Source: Candidatus Poriferihabitaceae bacterium
GTDB taxonomy: Bacteria; Pseudomonadota; Gammaproteobacteria; Arenicellales; Poriferihabitantaceae
Length of the DNA stretch: 64,000 nucleotides
Direction of reading: 5' to 3'
Assembly (NCBI GenBank): GCA_965249035.1
Contig: CBDFKV010000005.1
Location: forward strand, 50,463 to 114,462
The stretch's first letter is position 1. Every line of letters starts with the position of its first letter. The notes beneath the pieces were generated by a model. The model saw only the letters and a program-made list of their open reading frames with translations, searched no databases and was not told the DNA's origin. The translations under genes and the position numbers were made by a program. This document shows, piece after piece, positions 3,153-36,057 of this stretch.

Positions 3153-3169
3153 TGGCCACAGTGTGGCCA
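3153..3169. promoter_or_regulatory. 17-bp palindrome, copy 2
   Basis: TGGCCACAGTGTGGCCA. Confidence 0.7.
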
Positions 3170-3249
3170 TTAGAAAAGACCCATAGTACGTGTACGGCCT
3201 TGAAATTCTTTTTCTGCGGCCGTAATATGGCCGCGTTGAACAATTTACT

Positions 3250-3353
3250 GTGGACTGCCAGCGCCCCGAAGTTTCTGGCATAGAGCGATGAATACTGGAT
3301 TTATCCAGTACCGACCGAAGAAAACATCGTCATAGGGTAAAACCTACTCGGTC
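3250..3353 (+). ncRNA. 104-nt structured element, copy 1 (candidate cis-regulatory RNA)
   Basis: Duplicated at 6618-6721 with only two differences, which form one compensatory pair; stems TGCCAG/CTGGCA, CGATG/CATCG, TACTGGA/TCCAGTA, TAGG/CCTA, GACCGA/TCGGTC. Confidence 0.65.
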
Positions 3354-3369
3354 ATATTCAATACTTTTC

Positions 3370-3443
3370 AACCCTATCGGGGATGTACTCATCCCGTAGG
3401 GGTTAGTGCATCCCTTTTTTATTATTAAATCGGAGATGTACCA
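3370..3443 (+). promoter_or_regulatory. Repeated structured 5' leader, copy A
   Basis: AACCC..GGGATGTACTCATCCCGTAGGGGTTAGTGCATCCCTTTTTT..AAATCGGAGATGTACCA then ATG. Confidence 0.8.
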
Positions 3444-4199
3444 ATGAATAACTCAACTCAAAACGCAACCAACAAAACTTACGACGTTCACACGACTGGA
3501 TTCGGATACTTAAACCGTATTCGTGAGGTCACACCTTCACATGGTGGTAAGCCGTACTTATCTTGCGATATCACATTGCAGGAAGGCGTTGCAAAAGATG
3601 GCGATTTTTCTACGATCAAAAAGATTTACTTTCAAGCTAACGTAGTTGGCACGAAGGCAATCGAGGTGATGCGTGAGCATTTCACCAATGATCAAGGAAA
3701 AGTAGCTTCACCGGATGAGCCAGTAACCGCAGCTGTCCGCCTTGGCGGAATTGATGTGGATCAGTGGACTTATCAAAAAGGCGATAAAGCGGGTCAACCA
3801 GGCGTGACACTTAAAACGCGCTTGTTAAAGCTCACCTATCTCGCTATTGGTGGTAACGCTATCGATCTGGGCGAAGATGAAGATAATGCCGAGACAGCAC
3901 AGGAGCCTTCCGAGGAACCTACTGCCGAAGCACAGTCTGAACCTGAACTCTCGCAAATCGAGGGGGATACGCAGCCGGAATCTGAGTCGCAAGACGAAGA
4001 ACCCGAAGCGGTATCAATCGAAGATATGCAGGACGATAGCGGTAAACTGTGTGAAATCCATCTCTCTAAAGACGATCCAGAGTTTGACGCAAAGCGCGTC
4101 ATGGTAAAACAACTGGGCTATCGTTGGAACAGTGACAGTCAGTCCTGGCTACCACCTGTCCAACAAGCGAATGAGCAGGCAGCGCAAGCAGCTGGTTAA
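3444..4199 (+). CDS. DUF3577 (STY4534-like) ICE protein with acidic linker and extra C-terminal domain
   Basis: YDVHTTGFGYLNRIREV..YLSCDI, WTYQKGDKAGQPGVTLKTRLLK are typical of DUF3577; position after topB. Confidence 0.85.
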   Translation: MNNSTQNATNKTYDVHTTGFGYLNRIREVTPSHGGKPYLSCDITLQEGVAKDGDFSTIKKIYFQANVVGTKAIEVMREHFTNDQGKVASPDEPVTAAVRLGGIDVDQWTYQKGDKAGQPGVTLKTRLLKLTYLAIGGNAIDLGEDEDNAETAQEPSEEPTAEAQSEPELSQIEGDTQPESESQDEEPEAVSIEDMQDDSGKLCEIHLSKDDPEFDAKRVMVKQLGYRWNSDSQSWLPPVQQANEQAAQAAG

Positions 4200-4212
4200 T
4201 TCGTTAGTTGAT

Positions 4213-4238
4213 ACATCACAGCCTTCGGGCTGTGATGT
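4213..4238 (+). terminator. 11-bp perfect hairpin with C(UUCG)G tetraloop after DUF3577
   Basis: ACATCACAGCC-TTCG-GGCTGTGATGT; U-tract is weak, so it may be a stability or processing hairpin. Confidence 0.55.
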
Positions 4239-4278
4239 TGATATTAGAGTAAAATCATCATTTTTTGAGGACATACCA

Positions 4279-4461
4279 ATGTCTACTGATAAACCCTTAC
4301 CTGCTGGCGATTCAATTTCAGAACTCAGCACCGAGCAGTTGGAGAATACGCTTGATTCCGTTCGTTTTGACATCGTTAAGCACAAGCTAGATCGTGATTC
4401 GATTCTGGACATTTGGGAAGCAGGTCTGAAACAGCATTTGCTGAAGGTTAGCAAAAGCTAA
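4279..4461 (+). CDS. Small hypothetical protein (60 aa)
   Basis: GAGG RBS before ATG 4279 (MSTDKPL...). Confidence 0.65.
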   Translation: MSTDKPLPAGDSISELSTEQLENTLDSVRFDIVKHKLDRDSILDIWEAGLKQHLLKVSKS

Positions 4462-4481
4462 GTAGCTACAAATACAATTCA

Positions 4482-4553
4482 AACCCACACGGGATGCACT
4501 CATCCCATTGGGGTGGTACGTCCTTTTTAAATTTTTAAATCGGAGATGTACCA
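4482..4553 (+). promoter_or_regulatory. Repeated structured 5' leader, copy B
   Basis: AACCC..GGGATGCACTCATCCCATTGGGGTGGTACGTCCTTTTT..AAATCGGAGATGTACCA then ATG. Confidence 0.8.
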
Positions 4554-4826
4554 ATGAATTTTCTAAAATCTAAACGCACGATCGCAAAACTGGAAGCTTA
4601 CAGTGACTTCGCCAATTCATACGGCGTATGGCTTTTTATGATCTTTTTGTCAGCATCAATGTTGGCACTAATGATATATGGAGCCTATACAAAGTGGGAT
4701 TCACCGGAGTTCACCACCTTTCATGTTTATACGCTGGCACTTTTAATTATCGTGATACTCGCTTGCCTATTTACAGCTCTAGTCGAGCTAGTAAGCGAGC
4801 TATACAGAAACCAGGCTATCCACTAG
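4554..4826 (+). CDS. Small two-TM membrane protein
   Basis: Two hydrophobic stretches; starts exactly at the end of leader B. Confidence 0.75.
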   Translation: MNFLKSKRTIAKLEAYSDFANSYGVWLFMIFLSASMLALMIYGAYTKWDSPEFTTFHVYTLALLIIVILACLFTALVELVSELYRNQAIH

Positions 4827-4842
4827 CGGAGCCTTCAATTCA

Positions 4843-4913
4843 AACCTTATTGGGATGCATTCATCCCATTGGGGTGGTACGTCCCTTTTTAATTTTTAAA
4901 TCGGAGATGTACT
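4843..4913 (+). promoter_or_regulatory. Repeated structured 5' leader, copy C
   Basis: AACC..GGGATGCATTCATCCCATTGGGGTGGTACGTCCCTTTTT..AAATCGGAGATGTACT then ATG. Confidence 0.8.
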
Positions 4914-5141
4914 ATGAACACTAAAATCGAAGAAATTGGACTCTATCTGGTCGGAGCGTTTGTAACTCTGACAATAGCAGCCATAGTCGCGTTTGGATGG
5001 CTTCTTGCTTCCATTCTTGGCAGTGCAGTAGCATCAATGTACTCAGCAATGGTTGATGCGATGCTTCGTTCGCCTATTTGCACTCTTTTCTTTTCACCGT
5101 GGCTTAAAGCAAACATGCTTGCTCAATTGAAGCAGTCATAG
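4914..5141 (+). CDS. Small membrane protein (75 aa)
   Basis: Long hydrophobic segment; starts at the end of leader C. Confidence 0.7.
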   Translation: MNTKIEEIGLYLVGAFVTLTIAAIVAFGWLLASILGSAVASMYSAMVDAMLRSPICTLFFSPWLKANMLAQLKQS

Positions 5142-5157
5142 CTAATCAAGCTGCGTT

Positions 5158-5228
5158 AACCCAGACGGGAATCACCATTCCCGTTTACGGGCTTGGTATT
5201 CCCGTCGTAATCATTATTGGAGGCGACA
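5158..5228 (+). promoter_or_regulatory. Repeated structured 5' leader, divergent copy D
   Basis: AACCC-AGACGGGAAT-CACC-ATTCCCGT..TGGT-ATTCCCGTC: same layout with compensatory sequence changes. Confidence 0.65.
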
Positions 5229-5411
5229 ATGGAAAAGCTAGCCTGGCAAGAGTTTCTGACTTTTTGCGATACTGCAATAACGAATGAATTACTCGAAAAA
5301 CGAGGACGAATCCTTGATCTGATTCCGAAGTTGCAAGACGAAGATGTTATTCGTGATGCGCACAGGATGGTGAAAACTATCGATCAGGAATTGATGGGGC
5401 GAGTTCTTTAG
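5229..5411 (+). CDS. Small helical hypothetical protein (60 aa)
   Basis: GGAGG RBS before ATG 5229 (MEKLAWQEF...). Confidence 0.65.
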   Translation: MEKLAWQEFLTFCDTAITNELLEKRGRILDLIPKLQDEDVIRDAHRMVKTIDQELMGRVL

Positions 5412-5710
5412 TCTTTTCCGTGTCGGCGCATGATTGCGTCGGCACGGTCAGGATTACCTTTGGCAATTTCAATCAACGCCTGACGCTCAGGATTAGAGCA
5501 GTCACCGTCTGATGCGATTGCGGCCAGGAAATCATTAATAAACGGACGTGATTTTCCCCAGGCATGATCAAACTGCTGTTCGGTTTTGATACTGTCAATG
5601 TGGATGCCAACTTTAGCAAAATGCTGGGCGTATTTAGCTCGGTCTTTGCGTGTAAATACCAGTGTTCCATTACTGGATACCAGGCATCCGGTGTGATGTT
5701 TCGTATTCAT
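5408..5710 (-). CDS. Hypothetical protein (100 aa), the only minus-strand gene in the small-gene array
   Basis: ATG start, protein-like composition, convergent overlap with 5229..5411. Confidence 0.6.
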   Translation of the reverse strand: MNTKHHTGCLVSSNGTLVFTRKDRAKYAQHFAKVGIHIDSIKTEQQFDHAWGKSRPFINDFLAAIASDGDCSNPERQALIEIAKGNPDRADAIMRRHGKD

Positions 5711-5774
5711 TCGTCAATCATATCACAAGGATGGTGAAGTCAATCAGGTGCCGATCCAATCTTTCTTAATCTTG

Positions 5775-5791
5775 TGGCCAGACTCTGGCCA
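5775..5791. promoter_or_regulatory. 17-bp palindrome, symmetric variant TGGCCAGA-C-TCTGGCCA
   Basis: Both arms changed together (CACA/TGTG to CAGA/TCTG), preserving the dyad. Confidence 0.65.
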
Positions 5792-5804
5792 GCAAATTCA
5801 ATTT

Positions 5805-5871
5805 AACCTTTACGGGATGCATTCACACCCCGTTGGGTTGGTGCATTCCTTTTTCTATGGAGGAAATTCAA
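5805..5871 (+). promoter_or_regulatory. Repeated structured 5' leader, copy E
   Basis: AACC..ACGGGATGCATTCACACCCCGTTGGGTTGGTGCATTCCTTTTT..GGAGG then ATG. Confidence 0.75.
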
Positions 5872-5964
5872 ATGGCAGAAATGCTAATCGCGCTACTGGT
5901 ACTCGTTTTAATTGGCGGTTACCTTGCTTCATGTTGTTGGTTAGCCAGCAACTATCACAGATGA
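5872..5964 (+). CDS. 30-aa single-TM peptide MAEMLIALLVLVLIGGYLASCCWLASNYHR (not in the ORF track)
   Basis: Hand translation; GGAGG RBS at 5859-5863; follows leader E. Confidence 0.6.
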   Translation: MAEMLIALLVLVLIGGYLASCCWLASNYHR

Positions 5965-5998
5965 ATCAGGACTGGATAATTTAGTCCAAAATGTTGTT

Positions 5999-6076
5999 AA
6001 CCCTGCCGGGATGTACTCATCCCGTAGGGGTTAGTGCATCCCTTTTTTATTTTTATTTTAAATCGGAGATGTACCA
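5999..6076 (+). promoter_or_regulatory. Repeated structured 5' leader, copy F (near-identical to A)
   Basis: AACCC..GGGATGTACTCATCCCGTAGGGGTTAGTGCATCCCTTTTTT..AAATCGGAGATGTACCA then ATG. Confidence 0.8.
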
Positions 6077-6424
6077 ATGAATAACTTAACTCAATCCGCC
6101 GCACAGCATGATGCAGAGCATTTCAATGTAGGCGACATACTCGAAGCCCCCTGGGGCTTTAGTGTGTCAGGCGTTGATTTTTATCAAGTTGTACGCATTA
6201 CTGCTTCAGGCAAATCAGTAGCTCTCAAAAAACTTGCCAAACGACATAAAGGCGTTGGGCAGCTGAATGGGAATTCAGAGCCTATACAACACAAGTTTGT
6301 TGGTGAAGCATTGATGCGCCGTGTTAAGCCTTACGATGCTACCAGCCCACAAGTCAGAATTGACGGATTTACAATCGCAACACGATGGACGGGTGTTCCG
6401 TTCTTTGAAAGCCATGATCAATAA
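6077..6424 (+). CDS. Hypothetical mobile-element protein (VGDIL..WG....VDFYQVV motif)
   Basis: Motif recalled from phage/plasmid hypothetical proteins; starts at the end of leader F. Confidence 0.75.
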   Translation: MNNLTQSAAQHDAEHFNVGDILEAPWGFSVSGVDFYQVVRITASGKSVALKKLAKRHKGVGQLNGNSEPIQHKFVGEALMRRVKPYDATSPQVRIDGFTIATRWTGVPFFESHDQ

Positions 6425-6439
6425 TGATGCTAAATAACG

Positions 6440-6456
6440 TGGCCACAGTGTGGCCA
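6440..6456. promoter_or_regulatory. 17-bp palindrome, copy 4
   Basis: TGGCCACAGTGTGGCCA. Confidence 0.7.
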
Positions 6457-30456: not shown

Positions 30457-33400
30457 ATGCCAAACAACCAACTATTAGGAATTACTAAAAAAAGTGGCGA
30501 TTTATCTCTAGTCGCTGAAATATCAATGTTCGATGCCGCCGATGTTGCGCCGGTAGCTGAAGCCACGCCGACGATTCCACCACCGCCCGAACCAACCACT
30601 GAGGAAGTTCAAGCTCCTGAAGAAGAAACAAGCAGCTCAGAATCAGCCGAAGCCGAAGTGCCAGCGTCGGAACCGGATAGTGGCGACGACTCAAGCGCAG
30701 CAACCACTGAAGAAGTGGCTGCAGACGGGGAGCAAGAACCCGAACCAGTGATCCCAACTTCTACAGAACCAGCGGCAACGGCTACTGATGAAGCCGTAGA
30801 AAGTGCTGACAGCGCGGAAGAAGACGCTACCGCCAATGTTGAGGAAACCGTCACCGAAGCTGAAGCCGTCGTAGAAACAGAAGCGGAAGCTACTGAAGAA
30901 GTAGCCGAAGTATTGCCCGTTGATAATTCTGAATCTGAGCAGGGAGGAAGCGACAACACGGAAGAAAAGACGCAGACCGAAACGGACGAAATAAAGAATG
31001 AAGATCAAACCCAGTCACCTGCCTCAGAAGCAGATACGGCGGCGCAAGAAGCGATAGTCGAAGAAAGGCCCACCTTGGCGCACATTCTAACCCCTAGCTT
31101 AGTATCCCAAGAAATTGGGCATTTAGTGCGCCCAGCAAATCCTATATTGATAGGCGACACGACCAATATATTTAATACTGGTGTGTACGGCAGACCAACA
31201 GGAGGAGAGTGGGCCGATATGTTCCCAACATATAGTTCGGTTGGGCTAGAACTTATCGAAGAGGCTCAAGTCGAAACAGCCAGCGCAAGCGAAGCTGTAA
31301 GCATTGTTAACTTTGACGCCTTGAATGATGCAGCCAGTAGCGATGCTCCAATAGCTGGCTTTATTGATGCGGACTTAATGGAAATGCTGGTGGCCCCCGT
31401 GCCATTAAACGCTATTCCACAAACAACCTCTGCCTTACCACTATTAGTTGATGAACAAACTATAGCGGCGCTGGAACCCAATACTGAGAAAGTAGAGCTG
31501 GTGGTTATTAATGACGATGGCCATAGAGACATCACCGAGATAGTCGAGGGTGAGCTGGAAGCGGGGCGAGAAGTTCTGATTATTAAGCCGAATCAAGACG
31601 GGATAGCCGTCATTAATGATTACCTCGACGAAAGCAACAAACAATATGACGCCGTGATTATTTACAGCCACGGGATCAACAATCAAATCATTCTTGGAGA
31701 TTACACGCTCACTAATGAAAATGTAGCAGACAGCGGGATTGATGGCTTTAGCGAACACTTGTCGGCAGGCGCGGACATCATCTTCGCGAGTTGTAACGCT
31801 GCGGAAAGCGATTCAGGCAAGGCTATGATCGACCAAATAGCCGAGCTAACCGGCGCAGATGTAGGCGCGTCAAGCGACTCAACCGGCAACTCTGAAACCG
31901 GCGATTGGGATTTAGAGTACCAGACGGGAGCGCTGGAAACAGACTTTGCTGAAGAAGTAAAGGCGAACTATACCGGCACTGATTTCGATAATGTATTACA
32001 GACGTGGGAGTGGACAGACCCACAAGGGCTAGTACATCAATACAAGTTTATTTTACATACTGGTAGCGATTATCAGTCATGGGCGGCTGCGGAAACCGAC
32101 GCCCATGCGTTTACCAGTGCCGAGTCTTCTGATTGGTATTTAGCAACATTCACCAGCCAAGCCGAGTACGACGCATACCTGGCGCTAATAAACGGCACTA
32201 ACGAAGGCCCAATAGACCAAACGAATTGGGCGGGAGCTTGGTTCGGCGCTGTTAGTGTTGCTGACGGGACAAATAATTACTACTGGGGTGACGACCAATC
32301 ACCTGAATACCTTGATGCAATAGCGAACAACAATCAGAATTGGGATCCGAACGACTCAAGCCCCGCTGGATCAAGCCCAAGCGGGGGCGGTGAAGCCGGT
32401 GGAAACGACTACGGCGCGGTCATATTGAATGACGTTCACAATAGTGGTGGAAGTCCTGCCGACTCTCCCGAACGCGAAGGGTTATGGCATACGGTGCCTC
32501 TCGACGGCTCGCATTCAGACAGCAATCCCAACCCAGGGGTATTCCAATCAGATGCGTACATTATCGAAACAATTTTGGCGGCTGAGCCACCAGTCATTGA
32601 TCCCGACCCCACCACACCTAACAACCTAGAAGGGTGTTTGGCGGTTTGGTACGAAGGTGACGGAGCGATAGCGATTGCCCCAAATATTTCAATCACCGAT
32701 CCAGACAGCACAAATTTCACACAGTTAGCCTTGTCGTTTACTGCTGGATGGGAAAGCACCGACGTTGTATCGTGGAGCGCGGGGGCAGTACCCGCCGGAG
32801 TATCAGTGTCGTTAGCTACCGCAGCGGATGGAACCCCAACAGGACTAACCGTAACCGGATCAGCTAGTGTCGCGGCGTACAACACACTTGCTCAATCCAT
32901 CACATTCGACTCAACAACGCAAGATGCGACAGAAGTAGATCGAGATATCACTTGGATGGTTTTGGACGATACCATAGCGATACTTGGAGGCCCACAAGCG
33001 AGCACAGTTGGAACATCCTCAGTCTGTGTCGATGCAGTGCCAGAACCCCCGGTAATCACGCCACCGACGTATGAGATACCTCCGGTACTGAGTGATCCTG
33101 ACGATCCAAACAGCCCGTTAGTAGGCGGCTGTACTGCGGTTTACACCGAGAATGGTGATCCCGTGCTATTGGCAGCGGATATCAATTTCACTGATATTGA
33201 TTCGGATAATCTGACAATGGCCACCATCGACATGACCGGCGCTTGGGAAGCAACTGACGTAGTTGCATGGGATGCAGCGGTAGTACCCGCAGGTGTGACC
33301 GTAACGCTGGCCACAGCAGCAGACGGTACGCCGACAGGCATTGTGATTGATGGCGAGGCCACCAAGGACGAGTATGTCGCAATCGCCCAAAGCCTTAACT

Positions 33401-36057
33401 ATATGTCCACCTCAGAAAATCCCAGCGAAGAACCTCGTGAGCTGACTTGGGAAATCTGGGATGACACGCCAGACGAGACTAATGCGGCGCATGAAACCTA
33501 TTTAGAGGAAGGCCCGTTGCCTTCTAACATTGTCGTTACCTCAGTCTGTGTTGATGCAGTGCCAGAACCCCCTGTAATCACGCCACCGACGTTTGAGCTT
33601 CCTCCGGTATTAAGTGATCCAAACGACCCGGACAGTCCGCTTGTAGGCGGCTGTACTGCGGTTTACACCGAGAACGGTGATCCCGTATTGCTGGCTGCAG
33701 ATATCAACTTCACCGATATCGATTCGGAAAACCTGACAATGGCCACCATCGACATGACCGGCGCTTGGGAAGCTACTGATGTAGTCGCGTGGGATACAGC
33801 GGTAGTACCTGCAGGGGTGACGGTGACGTTAGCAACAGCAGCGGATGGCACACCGACAGGCATTGTGATTGATGGCGAGGCCACCAAGGCCGAGTATGTC
33901 GCAATCGCCCAAAGCCTTAACTATATGTCCACCTCAGAAAATCCCAGCGAAGAACCTCGTGAGCTTACTTGGGAAATTTGGGACGATACACCGGATCAGG
34001 ATAACTACGCGCATGAAAATGCGCTGGAAGAAGGCCCATTACCTTCTAACATTGTAGTTACCTCAGTCTGTGTCGATGCGGTGCCGGATGCTCCGGTAAT
34101 CACGCCACCGACGTATGAGATTCCTCCGGTGCTGAGTGATCCTGACGATCCAAACAGCCCGTTAGTAGGCGGCTGTACTGCGGTTTACACCGAGAATGGT
34201 GATCCCGTGCTATTGGCAGCGGATATCAATTTCACTGATATTGATTCTGACAATCTAACGATGGCCACCATCGACATGACCGGCGCTTGGGAAGCTACTG
34301 ATGTAGTCGCGTGGGATACAGCGGTAGTACCTGCAGGGGTGACGGTGACGTTAGCAACAGCAGCGGATGGCACACCGACAGGTATCGTTATTGATGGCGA
34401 GGCCACCAAGGCCGAGTACGTGGCCATAGCGCAAAGCCTGAACTATATGTCCACGTCCGAAGAACCAAGCGAAGACCCAAGAGAGTTGACTTGGGAAATC
34501 TGGGACGACACGCCGGTCGAGGACAATTACGCGCATGAGAATGCGCTGGAAGAAGGCCCGTTGCCTTCTAACATTGTCGTTACCTCAGTTTGTGTGGACG
34601 CGGTGCCGGATGCGCCGGTAATCGTGAATGAATATCCACCAGAATTGAATGATCCTGACGACCCATTTCCAACATACCCGAACAATCCAGATTGTCCGTG
34701 TGACGTTATATTTGTAGAGAACGGCGAAGCTGTGTTGCTAATGCCAGCAATTGATTTCAGTGATTTGGATTCGGAATTCTTAACTTCTGCAACCATTGAT
34801 TTTAGTTCTCCATTAACAGAAGATTTCAGCGTCACAGGGGTTCAGGGATGGGAGCCAACAGATATAGTTACATGGGACGCCGCAGTAGTACCTGCAGGAG
34901 TGACCGTAACACTGGCAACGGCTGCGGACGGCACACCGACCGGGATAGTCATTGATGGCGAAGCCACACTAGCTGAATACGAAGCACTCTTTCAATCAAT
35001 TAGTTATGTGACTGAATCTGAGCGGCCAAGTGAGGGTGAGCGCGTGATAACCGTGCAAATCTGGGACGATACCCCGGTTGAGGACAATTACGCCTTCGAG
35101 AACGCACTGGAAGAAGGCCCACTGTCTTCTAATATTATTGTGATTAATCTGTGCGTGGATGCAGTACCAGACGCGCCCGATGTTGAACTAAATCCGAATA
35201 ACCTGCCATGTACTGAAATAGTTACAGGGCAAGGCCATGTCGATATGTTCCCGCAAGCGACGATTACCGATATTGATTCGGACAACCTCACCGCGATGAA
35301 TTTGGAGTTCACAGTCAACAATGGTGATGGTATTCGGTGGGACGATGCGCTGGTGCCGGAAGGCGTTAGCGTCCATGAAGCGTTTGATCCTGACGGTGTT
35401 TACTACGTCTACTTCACAGGCACAGCGCCGGTAGAAGAATACGAGGCATTGCTGCAATCGTTCCAGGTGCAGTCGAACTTTGTCGAAGGTACTCAGAGCC
35501 ACGAAATAGGTGTATCTGTGACCGTATTCGACGACACACCAGTAGAAGAAAACGGCTGCTACGAACAGTTTGGTGAAAATGGTGGAGTTACCTCTGCAGA
35601 GTTAGGGGCTTTAACAGACCATGACACCTTCTGCGCTCATGTTTACACACCGCCACCGCCACCATCTCCTGAACATCCGGCATCGTTCACAATGATTCCG
35701 ATTCCAGAAGAGGAATTATTCTTGCGGCATGTAGAGCCGGAAGAGATTCTGAGAAAGACAGATTATTCAATCCTGGAAGGTGATACCCCGGCGCACATCT
35801 TTATCCATGCGTTAGTCAACGGACAAGATGCAATCCTGAATGCTCAGTATGACGAAAACCATTTTGTGGATCAGCCCTTGCAACGAACATTGACGGATGG
35901 GCAGGCGCTATCAGCCTCTTTGCAAAATAGTATTGACGGGTTAGCCGCATCAGGCGTAAGCCCCGAAGGTATTGCCGAAGGGATGCGGAATGTTGACCCC
36001 GCGATTATCGGAGAACTTGACCAGGCGATGCGCTTAGAACACGCAATAGCTATCTAA
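30457..36057 (+). CDS. Giant acidic surface/adhesin-like protein: LEPRxLL-like N-terminal motif, DUF4347, C-type-lectin-like region, tandem Ig/cadherin-like repeats
   Basis: LVAEISMFDA; IIYSHG..LG..L..ADIIFASCN...IAELTGADVGASSDSTG...GDWDLE (DUF4347); SWAAAE..YLATFTSQAE..AWFG (CTL-like); repeats AVYTENGDPV..DIDS.NLT.ATI. Confidence 0.88.
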   Translation: MPNNQLLGITKKSGDLSLVAEISMFDAADVAPVAEATPTIPPPPEPTTEEVQAPEEETSSSESAEAEVPASEPDSGDDSSAATTEEVAADGEQEPEPVIPTSTEPAATATDEAVESADSAEEDATANVEETVTEAEAVVETEAEATEEVAEVLPVDNSESEQGGSDNTEEKTQTETDEIKNEDQTQSPASEADTAAQEAIVEERPTLAHILTPSLVSQEIGHLVRPANPILIGDTTNIFNTGVYGRPTGGEWADMFPTYSSVGLELIEEAQVETASASEAVSIVNFDALNDAASSDAPIAGFIDADLMEMLVAPVPLNAIPQTTSALPLLVDEQTIAALEPNTEKVELVVINDDGHRDITEIVEGELEAGREVLIIKPNQDGIAVINDYLDESNKQYDAVIIYSHGINNQIILGDYTLTNENVADSGIDGFSEHLSAGADIIFASCNAAESDSGKAMIDQIAELTGADVGASSDSTGNSETGDWDLEYQTGALETDFAEEVKANYTGTDFDNVLQTWEWTDPQGLVHQYKFILHTGSDYQSWAAAETDAHAFTSAESSDWYLATFTSQAEYDAYLALINGTNEGPIDQTNWAGAWFGAVSVADGTNNYYWGDDQSPEYLDAIANNNQNWDPNDSSPAGSSPSGGGEAGGNDYGAVILNDVHNSGGSPADSPEREGLWHTVPLDGSHSDSNPNPGVFQSDAYIIETILAAEPPVIDPDPTTPNNLEGCLAVWYEGDGAIAIAPNISITDPDSTNFTQLALSFTAGWESTDVVSWSAGAVPAGVSVSLATAADGTPTGLTVTGSASVAAYNTLAQSITFDSTTQDATEVDRDITWMVLDDTIAILGGPQASTVGTSSVCVDAVPEPPVITPPTYEIPPVLSDPDDPNSPLVGGCTAVYTENGDPVLLAADINFTDIDSDNLTMATIDMTGAWEATDVVAWDAAVVPAGVTVTLATAADGTPTGIVIDGEATKDEYVAIAQSLNYMSTSENPSEEPRELTWEIWDDTPDETNAAHETYLEEGPLPSNIVVTSVCVDAVPEPPVITPPTFELPPVLSDPNDPDSPLVGGCTAVYTENGDPVLLAADINFTDIDSENLTMATIDMTGAWEATDVVAWDTAVVPAGVTVTLATAADGTPTGIVIDGEATKAEYVAIAQSLNYMSTSENPSEEPRELTWEIWDDTPDQDNYAHENALEEGPLPSNIVVTSVCVDAVPDAPVITPPTYEIPPVLSDPDDPNSPLVGGCTAVYTENGDPVLLAADINFTDIDSDNLTMATIDMTGAWEATDVVAWDTAVVPAGVTVTLATAADGTPTGIVIDGEATKAEYVAIAQSLNYMSTSEEPSEDPRELTWEIWDDTPVEDNYAHENALEEGPLPSNIVVTSVCVDAVPDAPVIVNEYPPELNDPDDPFPTYPNNPDCPCDVIFVENGEAVLLMPAIDFSDLDSEFLTSATIDFSSPLTEDFSVTGVQGWEPTDIVTWDAAVVPAGVTVTLATAADGTPTGIVIDGEATLAEYEALFQSISYVTESERPSEGERVITVQIWDDTPVEDNYAFENALEEGPLSSNIIVINLCVDAVPDAPDVELNPNNLPCTEIVTGQGHVDMFPQATITDIDSDNLTAMNLEFTVNNGDGIRWDDALVPEGVSVHEAFDPDGVYYVYFTGTAPVEEYEALLQSFQVQSNFVEGTQSHEIGVSVTVFDDTPVEENGCYEQFGENGGVTSAELGALTDHDTFCAHVYTPPPPPSPEHPASFTMIPIPEEELFLRHVEPEEILRKTDYSILEGDTPAHIFIHALVNGQDAILNAQYDENHFVDQPLQRTLTDGQALSASLQNSIDGLAASGVSPEGIAEGMRNVDPAIIGELDQAMRLEHAIAI
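33019..34584 (+). repeat. Three near-identical 522-bp (174-aa) intragenic tandem repeats, with degenerate copies on both sides
   Basis: TCAGT(C/T)TGTGT (SVCV) recurs at 33019, 33541, 34063 and 34585. Confidence 0.93.

Follow-up and report, generated by a model that had tools for sequence, protein, structure and literature searches.

Why should unrelated genes, standing one behind another in a mobile element, each begin directly after the same stretch of about 85 nucleotides (nt)? The question is raised by a 64,000-nt piece of the genome of a Candidatus Poriferihabitaceae bacterium (assembly GCA_965249035.1, contig CBDFKV010000005.1, positions 50,463 to 114,462; the whole piece is called the window here, and positions are counted from its first letter), which belongs to an integrative and conjugative element (ICE) of the GI type. 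The answer favoured here, held with moderate confidence from computed structures, is that each copy forms the 5' leader of an mRNA and would act as a translational lock that is OFF by default and carries its own release.

Six copies, all on the + strand, lie within 3360-6079, and the 3' end of each is the ATG start of an unrelated open reading frame (ORF). The core GGGATG-N4-CATCCC, allowing up to two mismatches, occurs eight times in the window against 2.18 expected, a number reached in none of 100 shuffles; the copies that an earlier note on this DNA had picked out are real, lie at the places given there and are on the + strand. The note had called the ORFs unrelated and small. By BLASTP they are indeed unrelated to one another, except for an eight-residue N-terminal match between those after the first and last copies, but the first, a DUF3577 gene, codes for 251 amino acids (aa) and is not small.

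Copy A (3360-3446, +), which scores 94.3 bits with R1, a covariance model built from the six window copies only, shows the parts most clearly. From the 5' end these are segment 0 (AACCC, 3370-3374), segment 1 together with the loop of the first hairpin (3378-3389), segment 2 (3390-3396), segment 2' (GGGGTT, 3399-3404), segment 3 (3405-3415), which is complementary to the Shine-Dalgarno (SD) sequence, a U-run (3415-3420), and segment 4 (3432-3442), which includes the SD GGAG and is followed by the ATG at 3444; all are on the + strand. Copies B (4472-4556, +; U-run 4524-4528) and C (4833-4916, +; U-run 4886-4890) form both hairpins described below, and copies D (5148-5231), E (5795-5874) and F (5989-6079; U-run 6043-6048) follow on the same strand. 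A minus-strand ORF precedes E, which is the first leader after it. A U-run follows the long hairpin in five of the six copies, all but D.

Two mutually exclusive structures are predicted. The minimum free energy (MFE) structure of A, B, C and F consists of two hairpins, P1 and P2 (z -4.0 to -5.5; over all copies the z-scores from folding are -3.5 to -5.5 for five and -1.6 for E). The outer helix of P1 pairs segment 0 (AACCC) with segment 2' (GGGG or GGGGUU), and its inner helix pairs segment 1 with segment 2 (1:2, GGGAUG/CAUCCC). P2 is the pairing of segment 3 with segment 4 (3:4), in which GUGCAUCC or GUACGUCC pairs with GGAGAUGUAC, burying the SD. In the alternative state, 1:3 and 2:2' pairings build one long hairpin and leave the SD single-stranded. 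P1 carries a likeness of the SD arm in its 5' arm and loop. The four segments of the earlier note and their pairings 1:2, 3:4 and 1:3 are borne out by this folding, but four is an incomplete count, as segment 0, which lies 5' of segment 1, and segment 2', which lies between segments 2 and 3, also take part.

Folding of the growing transcript of copy A passes through both states: P1 forms first (-16.8 kcal/mol), then the 1:3+2:2' hairpin (-24.1), then P1+P2 (-29.4). The long hairpin is optimal at 47-73 nt, with 11 base pairs (bp) between segment 1/P1 loop and segment 3 and 5 bp between 2 and 2', and six U stand directly after it; P1+P2 takes over once segment 4 is transcribed. B, E and F give a similar order of folds, while C remains in P1. 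In D, segments 1-3 are rewritten to GGGAAU/AUUCCC with the pairing kept, as the earlier note had observed, and the 1:3 state is the global minimum; since D has neither P2 nor a U-run, its SD should be largely free. Copy E has a weaker P1, a U-run at 5850-5854 and a short SD-hiding hairpin, UUCCUUU/GGAGGAA. The earlier note had found no clear segment 4 in D and E, which this hairpin corrects for E.

The leader is a large family, widespread in GI-type ICEs and absent from Rfam. In the 3.0-Mb genome of the window R1 finds only the six copies and one weak match; of 150 related genomes, 4 have copies by this model. When 150 other genomes were sampled evenly over the phylum, 4 of them had a match at E ≤ 1e-4. 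A second covariance model, R2, was built from 41 matches and applied to 80 loci around DUF3577 genes of Pseudomonas, Thauera, Serratia, Enterobacter, Bordetella, Gluconacetobacter and others, giving 324 matches at E ≤ 0.01 in 713,856 bases. Among the 300 matches listed, all in the 80 DUF3577-oriented loci lie on the gene strand, often five to eight per 8-kb locus. The best 150 of the 324 matches, taken for detailed analysis, comprise 125 distinct rows; one 5'-incomplete row was left out, which leaves 124 leaders.

Every one of these 124 leaders is closed by a start codon (123 ATG, one GTG), the ORF behind it is 30 codons long or longer, and in every one an SD core stands 5-9 nt before the start, most often at 7. 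The genes downstream of the best 150 matches fall into at least 30 protein families when grouped by single-linkage BLASTP. A Pfam scan of 20 family representatives named ArdC, Antirestrict (PF03230, ArdB/KlcA-type), RadC and DUF932, and 16 representatives were without a Pfam family. A portable leader with mutually exclusive pairings, as the earlier note proposed, is supported, and its default fold hides the ribosome binding site. An E. coli ICE has one copy, which falls exactly in the interval from the STY4534 gene to the gene that follows, an interval left empty in the RefSeq annotation.

A second element in the same genome as the window (contig C3:141079-144161, locus L007) carries three weaker copies (25.9-32 bits with R2) on the minus strand, at 2361-2279, 1583-1501 and 883-807 of the locus. 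They precede a DUF2958-like ORF, so called from its translation, a 191-aa ORF and an 82-aa ORF. The C-terminus of the 191-aa protein is similar to that of the DUF3577 protein of the window. A methyltransferase-like ORF adjoins these copies.

The earlier note had set the novelty of the leader against a possible match to a characterised Rfam family, and none was found. Rfam 15 gave no match at gathering score in the whole window, and at E ≤ 10 nothing relevant over 3200-6200. In 20 related loci only the radC motif and one group II intron were found, and in loci L027 and L050 nothing fell on the leader even at E ≤ 1. No description of the leader was found in the literature outside the supplements of the Weinberg 2010 and 2017 motif papers, which possibly describe the region past radC. 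The main text of the 2017 paper is without the terms conjugative, DUF3577, DUF3085 and radC, and the papers found on DUF3577 are, by their titles or the opening of their abstracts, not concerned with an RNA.

Is the structure itself under selection? The earlier note had staked its claim on covariation among homologues, and for P1 and P2 this is found. In the 125 distinct rows, 18 of the 20 pairs of P1 and P2 vary on both sides. They reach a covariation score of 0.355, where shuffles give 0.128 and none of 500 comes up to the observed value, and sliding the partners by one to three columns brings it to 0.135 or less. Compensating changes in P2 are visible already in matches of the six-copy model R1, where the arms of the relatives' copies have changed in step (GUAUGUCC/GGAGAUAUAC, UCUAUCUCC/GGAAAUAGA and GAGUCUCC/GGAGAUAUCUC).

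Because the register of 1:3 varies between copies, this pairing was assessed by duplex energies, computed for the segments of one leader with each other and with segments taken from other copies (28 representatives differing by more than 30%; 5000 permutations). Each leader's own segments fit best: i) 1:3, -11.67 kcal/mol for own and -7.68 for other copies; ii) 3:4, -9.59 and -5.28; iii) 1:2, -9.77 and -7.77; and iv) the P1 loop with the 5' half of segment 3, -2.01 and -0.59. None of the 5000 permutations reached the observed value in any of the four. The result persists with one leader per downstream protein family (n=30), in a GC-rich subset (n=19, 0/5000) and in an AT-rich subset (n=11, 8/5000).

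The MFE structure pairs the SD region in all 124 leaders. To open it takes on average 8.5 kcal/mol when segment 3 is allowed a new partner and 14.5 kcal/mol when it is not, and the best SD-free fold uses 1:3 in 88 of the 124. As long as segment 4 has yet to be transcribed, there is little to choose between the two states: the MFE pairing is 1:3 in 53 of 124 leaders and 1:2 in 68. Conservation in the model consensus falls on the paired C/G blocks, the SD, the AUG, one A in a loop and the U-rich loop of P2, whereas the internal and hairpin loops of P1 differ from copy to copy. Conserved unpaired nucleotides that would form a ligand pocket, as in riboswitches, were not found in the model consensus.

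These features suggest the following mechanism. In state I, the predicted ground state, segments 0:2' and 1:2 would form P1 and segments 3:4 would form P2; the SD in segment 4, 5-9 nt before the start, would be buried, ribosomes would not bind and translation would be OFF. In state II, segment 1 plus the P1 loop would pair with segment 3, and segment 2 with 2', giving the long hairpin with a single-stranded SD, and translation would be ON. P1 would thus serve both as part of the lock and as a stored competitor for the anti-SD. That the family folds into P1 and P2 and hides its SD in this way is almost certain on the predicted structures; that state II is functional is likely. Both folds, the covariation of P1 and P2, the copy-specific 1:3 complementarity and the occlusion of the SD are results of computation, and we infer that cells use the leader as a two-state switch.

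The mechanism would also account for what is conserved. An SD of GGAG calls for CUCC/CCC in segment 3, which calls for GGG in segment 1, CCC in segment 2, GGG in segment 2' and CCC in segment 0. The conserved blocks AACCC, CGGG, CCCG, GGGG and CUCC may thus be a chain of complementarity anchored at the SD, and no protein or ligand site is needed to explain them. As no unpaired position is conserved, the trigger is presumably a generic one rather than a sequence-specific factor. Three candidates for the release are considered. The preferred one is RNA remodelling, or loading of 30S/S1 on the pyrimidine-rich P2 loop, after which 1:3 would latch the anti-SD away. The second is an endonuclease cut in the P2 loop; P2 would then become a two-molecule duplex and could be displaced by the intramolecular 1:3+2:2' pairing. 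The third is a co-transcriptional partition between the states at a pause.

Other triggers were examined and set aside. Translational coupling is not a general trigger: the gap between the upstream stop codon and segment 0 has a median of 116 nt and is below 20 nt in 11 of 111 cases. In the window these gaps are about 17-35 nt. A leader peptide would be possible in A and B, where a short ORF starts from an AUG inside segment 1, but GC-rich members have no such AUG. As to an ICE-encoded RNA binder or antiterminator, no AlpA, CsrA or ProQ gene was found in the window; the genome's only AlpA-family and CsrA genes are on other contigs, and no ProQ was found. This, together with the lack of conserved unpaired nucleotides, leaves nothing in favour of the idea of the earlier note that the captured genes are under one ICE-encoded control. 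Its other suggestion, that the genes are expressed directly upon transfer, is plausible in view of what they encode: many of the downstream genes, such as those for ArdC, antirestriction protein, RadC, DUF932 and DUF3577, are typical early or establishment genes. A promoter in the P2 loop, of the fold-back inhibition type, was discarded, as the loops are too short in many members and a scan found no site in the leaders.

Several results weigh against a lock with a working release. Full-length leaders favour state I by a mean of 8.5 kcal/mol, and the nested-path barriers from P1 to the long hairpin are 17-24 kcal/mol; with such barriers spontaneous switching is unlikely, and P1 forms first in transcription. 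When 1:3 is counted in fixed columns, in the register of copy A, 69.5% of cells are paired against 69.3% in shuffles (229/500), and the covariation score for these columns is weak (24/500 shuffles). The alignment behind the P1/P2 counts was fitted to the model structure and so leans towards structure. Wobble pairs do not tell the strand (G-U 126 against A-C 213 by columns), nor does folding energy (MFE -33.6 for sense and -34.1 for antisense). Finally, where a U-run is present, transcripts in state II would stop short of the SD, so that the ON role of this state in the window is doubtful unless it forms after the polymerase has passed.

The poor fixed-column count of 1:3 is read as a problem of register, and 1:3 is still short of formal proof. 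Barriers in the other direction, from the long hairpin to P1+P2, are 10-15 kcal/mol. With such barriers, both states should be long-lived and the earlier-made P1 should normally win; these are direct-path barriers, which ignore pseudoknotted intermediates and say nothing on invasion from the P1 loop.

The U-run leads to the first of two rival readings that survive about equally well, both of them unlikely. Here the leader would be a transcription attenuator or insulator, in which the 1:3+2:2' hairpin, or a small 2':3 hairpin, with its U-run terminates between cassettes, P1 is the antiterminator, and P2 silences only the read-through. In its favour, copies other than D have what an intrinsic terminator consists of, namely a G+C-rich hairpin, a U-tract and a competing fold. 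A terminator scan scored a hairpin plus T-run in A, B, C and F (eight sites in the 3.5-kb region against 3.0 expected), and the long hairpin is the MFE structure just as the U-run is made in A, B, E and F. Five or more U follow segment 3 in most copies of the AT-rich lineage to which the window belongs. Across the family, however, four or more U follow segment 3 in only 41 of 124 leaders, yet the 1:3 complementarity is kept in the GC-rich subset. P1 forms first, with a large predicted barrier to the terminator fold; D has no U-run; a leader peptide is absent; and upstream stop codons, at the distances given above, are not placed to act on P1. Attenuation in the sense of transcription, as the earlier note had put it, is therefore not a family trait. 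As the U-run is missing from most of the family, termination is taken to be a lineage-specific addition, and in the AT-rich lineage real termination may occur, with chances a little short of even. The note had given the 1:3 stem both a terminator-like character and the role of freeing the SD. It does free the SD in the predicted folds, but with a U-run the same stem would end the transcript before the SD is made, and the two roles conflict.

The second rival would take state I as all there is, a static translational damper with a pair of hairpins that stabilise the mRNA, never switching and giving a low, fixed output per cistron, with 1:3 merely tuning the opening of P2; it too has little probability. 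State I is the ground state in all 124 leaders, the SD opens about 6 kcal/mol more cheaply where 1:3 is permitted, no conserved unpaired nucleotides hint at a sensor, and D resembles a permanently open variant, as this reading would have it. A low output would, however, be reached more simply by a weaker SD, and the maintenance of six mutually compatible segments in front of at least 30 gene families suggests selection on two states.

What tells against readings at the DNA level is that one of the two P2 arms is invariably an SD at the correct spacing. A single-stranded DNA structure on the transferred strand, serving for priming, as a single-strand promoter or as a recombination site of cassettes, would go with the leading-region type of the downstream genes, with the position of the elements between cassettes, with the recombination of leaders described below, and with wobble statistics that are compatible with DNA or with the other strand. 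It offers no rationale for a canonically spaced SD in 124 of 124 leaders. In single-strand promoters of the Frpo type a long hairpin holds the -35 and -10 boxes in its stem; the helices here are at most about 16 bp, too short for both boxes, and no promoter-like site was found in any leader. Integron attC sites carry the inverse core RYYYAAC and the core GTTRRRY at the ends of an imperfect hairpin. The flanks of the leader do not fit these core sites: the outer arms are AACCC...GGGG(U), the AAC is distal and GTTRRRY is not conserved. This reading is thus very improbable. A double-stranded operator, with inverted repeats bound by the repressor of a promoter in the AT-rich stretch, is the least credible of all, for although the palindromes and the AT-rich spacer upstream of the SD would suit it, the stems covary (18 of 20 pairs) instead of keeping their sequence, the P2 loops of GC-rich members shrink to about 8 nt and leave no room for a promoter, and no sigma-70-like site was found in the leaders.

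How does the leader relate to the radC RNA motif (Rfam RF01754), described by Weinberg et al. 2010 (PMC2864571)? The window has no radC match at gathering score (40 bits), and over 3200-6200 none appears even when E is relaxed to 10. The same scan gives 20 radC matches of 60.8-130.5 bits, spread over 10 of 20 other ICE loci. A leader copy from among those listed follows 17 of the 20, its start lying anywhere from about 45 nt ahead of the 3' end of radC to 55 nt past it. In L027, for example, radC at 3739-3888 is followed by a leader at 3912-4003 with the ATG at 4001; another case is L058, 364-588. The two RNAs occur in the same elements, on the same strand and upstream of the same gene classes, those for DNA handling in mobile elements of Proteobacteria. 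They differ in that radC is another RNA, with a 149-nt model, and that the leader lies downstream of it and is often found without it. Since many leaders have no radC upstream and the window has none at all, the leader is a separate module, often forming the end of a 5' region that contains radC. The two look like a composite 5' region in which the leader would be an expression platform of its own.

A bolder version of the preferred mechanism, which is possible but doubtful, would make the leader a self-contained strand-exchange RNA switch by which early and anti-defence genes of the ICE are translated in one physiological situation only, either from transcripts made right after transfer or upon processing of the P2 loop with 1:3 expelling the SD arm; the same switch would then be the missing expression platform of radC. 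If this is true, solving the leader would explain radC too. The leader is in any case a concrete and mutable test bed for the function of the radC motif, unexplained since 2010.

Hiding an SD by competing folds is a known kind of mechanism; it is the leader family itself that is uncatalogued. Attenuators of the trp type share with the leader four consecutive segments with mutually exclusive pairings and one hairpin with a U-run. The leader differs from them in having no leader peptide, in exchanging 1:2/3:4 for 1:3/2:2' rather than for 2:3, and in that its conserved output is occlusion of the SD. The MS2 maturation gene, the tac and fbi elements of hok mRNA and fold-back inhibition in IS10 hide an SD through alternative or metastable folds. 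In these, as in the leader, an upstream complement pairs with the SD, a competing hairpin decides, and the ground state is OFF. In the leader, however, what competes is an imitation of the SD arm that is particular to each copy and is kept locked in a hairpin of its own, and the module is repeated before dozens of unrelated genes of one element family. The trp leader of B. subtilis with TRAP also both terminates and hides an SD in one leader, but there the two OFF outputs go together under a protein bound to triplet repeats, while the ICE leader has a terminator-like fold with a free SD and no evident protein site.

A second group of likenesses concerns the arrangement. Conjugative elements have repeated regulatory sequences of establishment genes, such as EGeRS of pLS20-family plasmids and the Reg576 operators (PMC8708921, PMC6294495). 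EGeRS, Reg576 and the Frpo single-strand promoters resemble the leader in that one regulatory sequence is repeated before variable anti-restriction or establishment genes. They are promoters or operators at the level of DNA, whereas the leader includes the SD and covaries as an RNA-type structure.

How do the copies reach new genes? Identity between A and F is 85% for the leader as a whole and 98% from P1 through segment 3, and between B and C it is 86%; with the orthologous DUF3577 leader of a relative, A reaches only 77%. The first eight codons after A and F are also common (MNNSTQNA at 3444-3467, MNNLTQSA at 6077-6100), so that the homology runs about 20 nt into both ORFs, as if a leader plus start had been copied onto a new gene. 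D and its gene have been inherited together in three genomes. These comparisons fit recombination of leader copies within the element and their movement onto new genes. The earlier note had suggested that the leaders serve as homology for gene shuffling; the identities agree with shuffling itself, and leave aside whether it is a selected function.

GI-type ICEs (relatives of ICEclc, SPI-7 and PAPI-1) spread catabolic, virulence and resistance traits, and to our knowledge the timing of expression of their anti-restriction and DNA-handling genes is poorly understood. One portable leader before at least 30 unrelated families would put these genes under control at one shared point. The leader also offers a handle for new early and anti-defence genes, anything behind it being a candidate, and its occurrence in E. 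coli ICEs makes it accessible in standard strains.

The assignment of the window to a GI-type (ICEclc/SPI-7-like) ICE comes from genes for TopB, an STY4534-family protein, TIGR03759, TraD (TIGR03754), TIGR03749, TIGR03752, TraC_PFL_4706 and TIGR03756. The array occupies a variable spot between topB/STY4534 and the transfer genes. The gene order is the same in an annotated E. coli ICE, where the array would map between topB/STY4534 and pilL. An ORF of 1866 aa at 30457-36057 inside the ICE has no NCBIfam match at E ≤ 1e-5.

The genes of the array are all on the + strand behind their leaders. A precedes the gene for the 251-aa DUF3577/STY4534-family ICE replication protein (3444-4199; PF12101, E 2.4e-23). 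No Pfam family was found for the five ORFs after B-F, which are a 90-aa ORF with two hydrophobic stretches after B (4554-4826), a 75-aa ORF with one long hydrophobic stretch after C (4914-5141), a 60-aa ORF after D (5229-5411), whose homologues lie behind leaders in two relatives, a 30-aa hydrophobic peptide after E (5872-5964), and a 115-aa ORF after F (6077-6424), which shares its beginning with the DUF3577 gene as described above. The minus-strand ORF that breaks the same-strand array between the genes of D and E codes for 100 aa (5408-5710) and has no Pfam family.

The surroundings of the array have features of their own. Identical copies of a palindrome, TGGCCACAGTGTGGCCA, stand one on each side of it, at 3153-3169 and 6440-6456, and a variant, TGGCCAGACTCTGGCCA, lies at 5775-5791, 14 nt upstream of leader E. 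A T-run comes after the copy at 6440, which was scored as terminator-like on both strands. The palindromes bounding the array could be an operator or a bidirectional terminator. A sigma-70-like site, TTGAAA-17-TAATAT (9/12), is present at 3200-3228, some 140 nt before leader A, in a region that has no more such sites than chance would give. Directly past the stop codon of the DUF3577 gene stands a perfect 10-bp hairpin with a UUCG loop (4213-4237). It is the 5' neighbour of a 60-aa ORF (4279-4461) that is without a leader copy and whose SD region (GAGGACATACCAATG) is similar to segment 4 of the leader.

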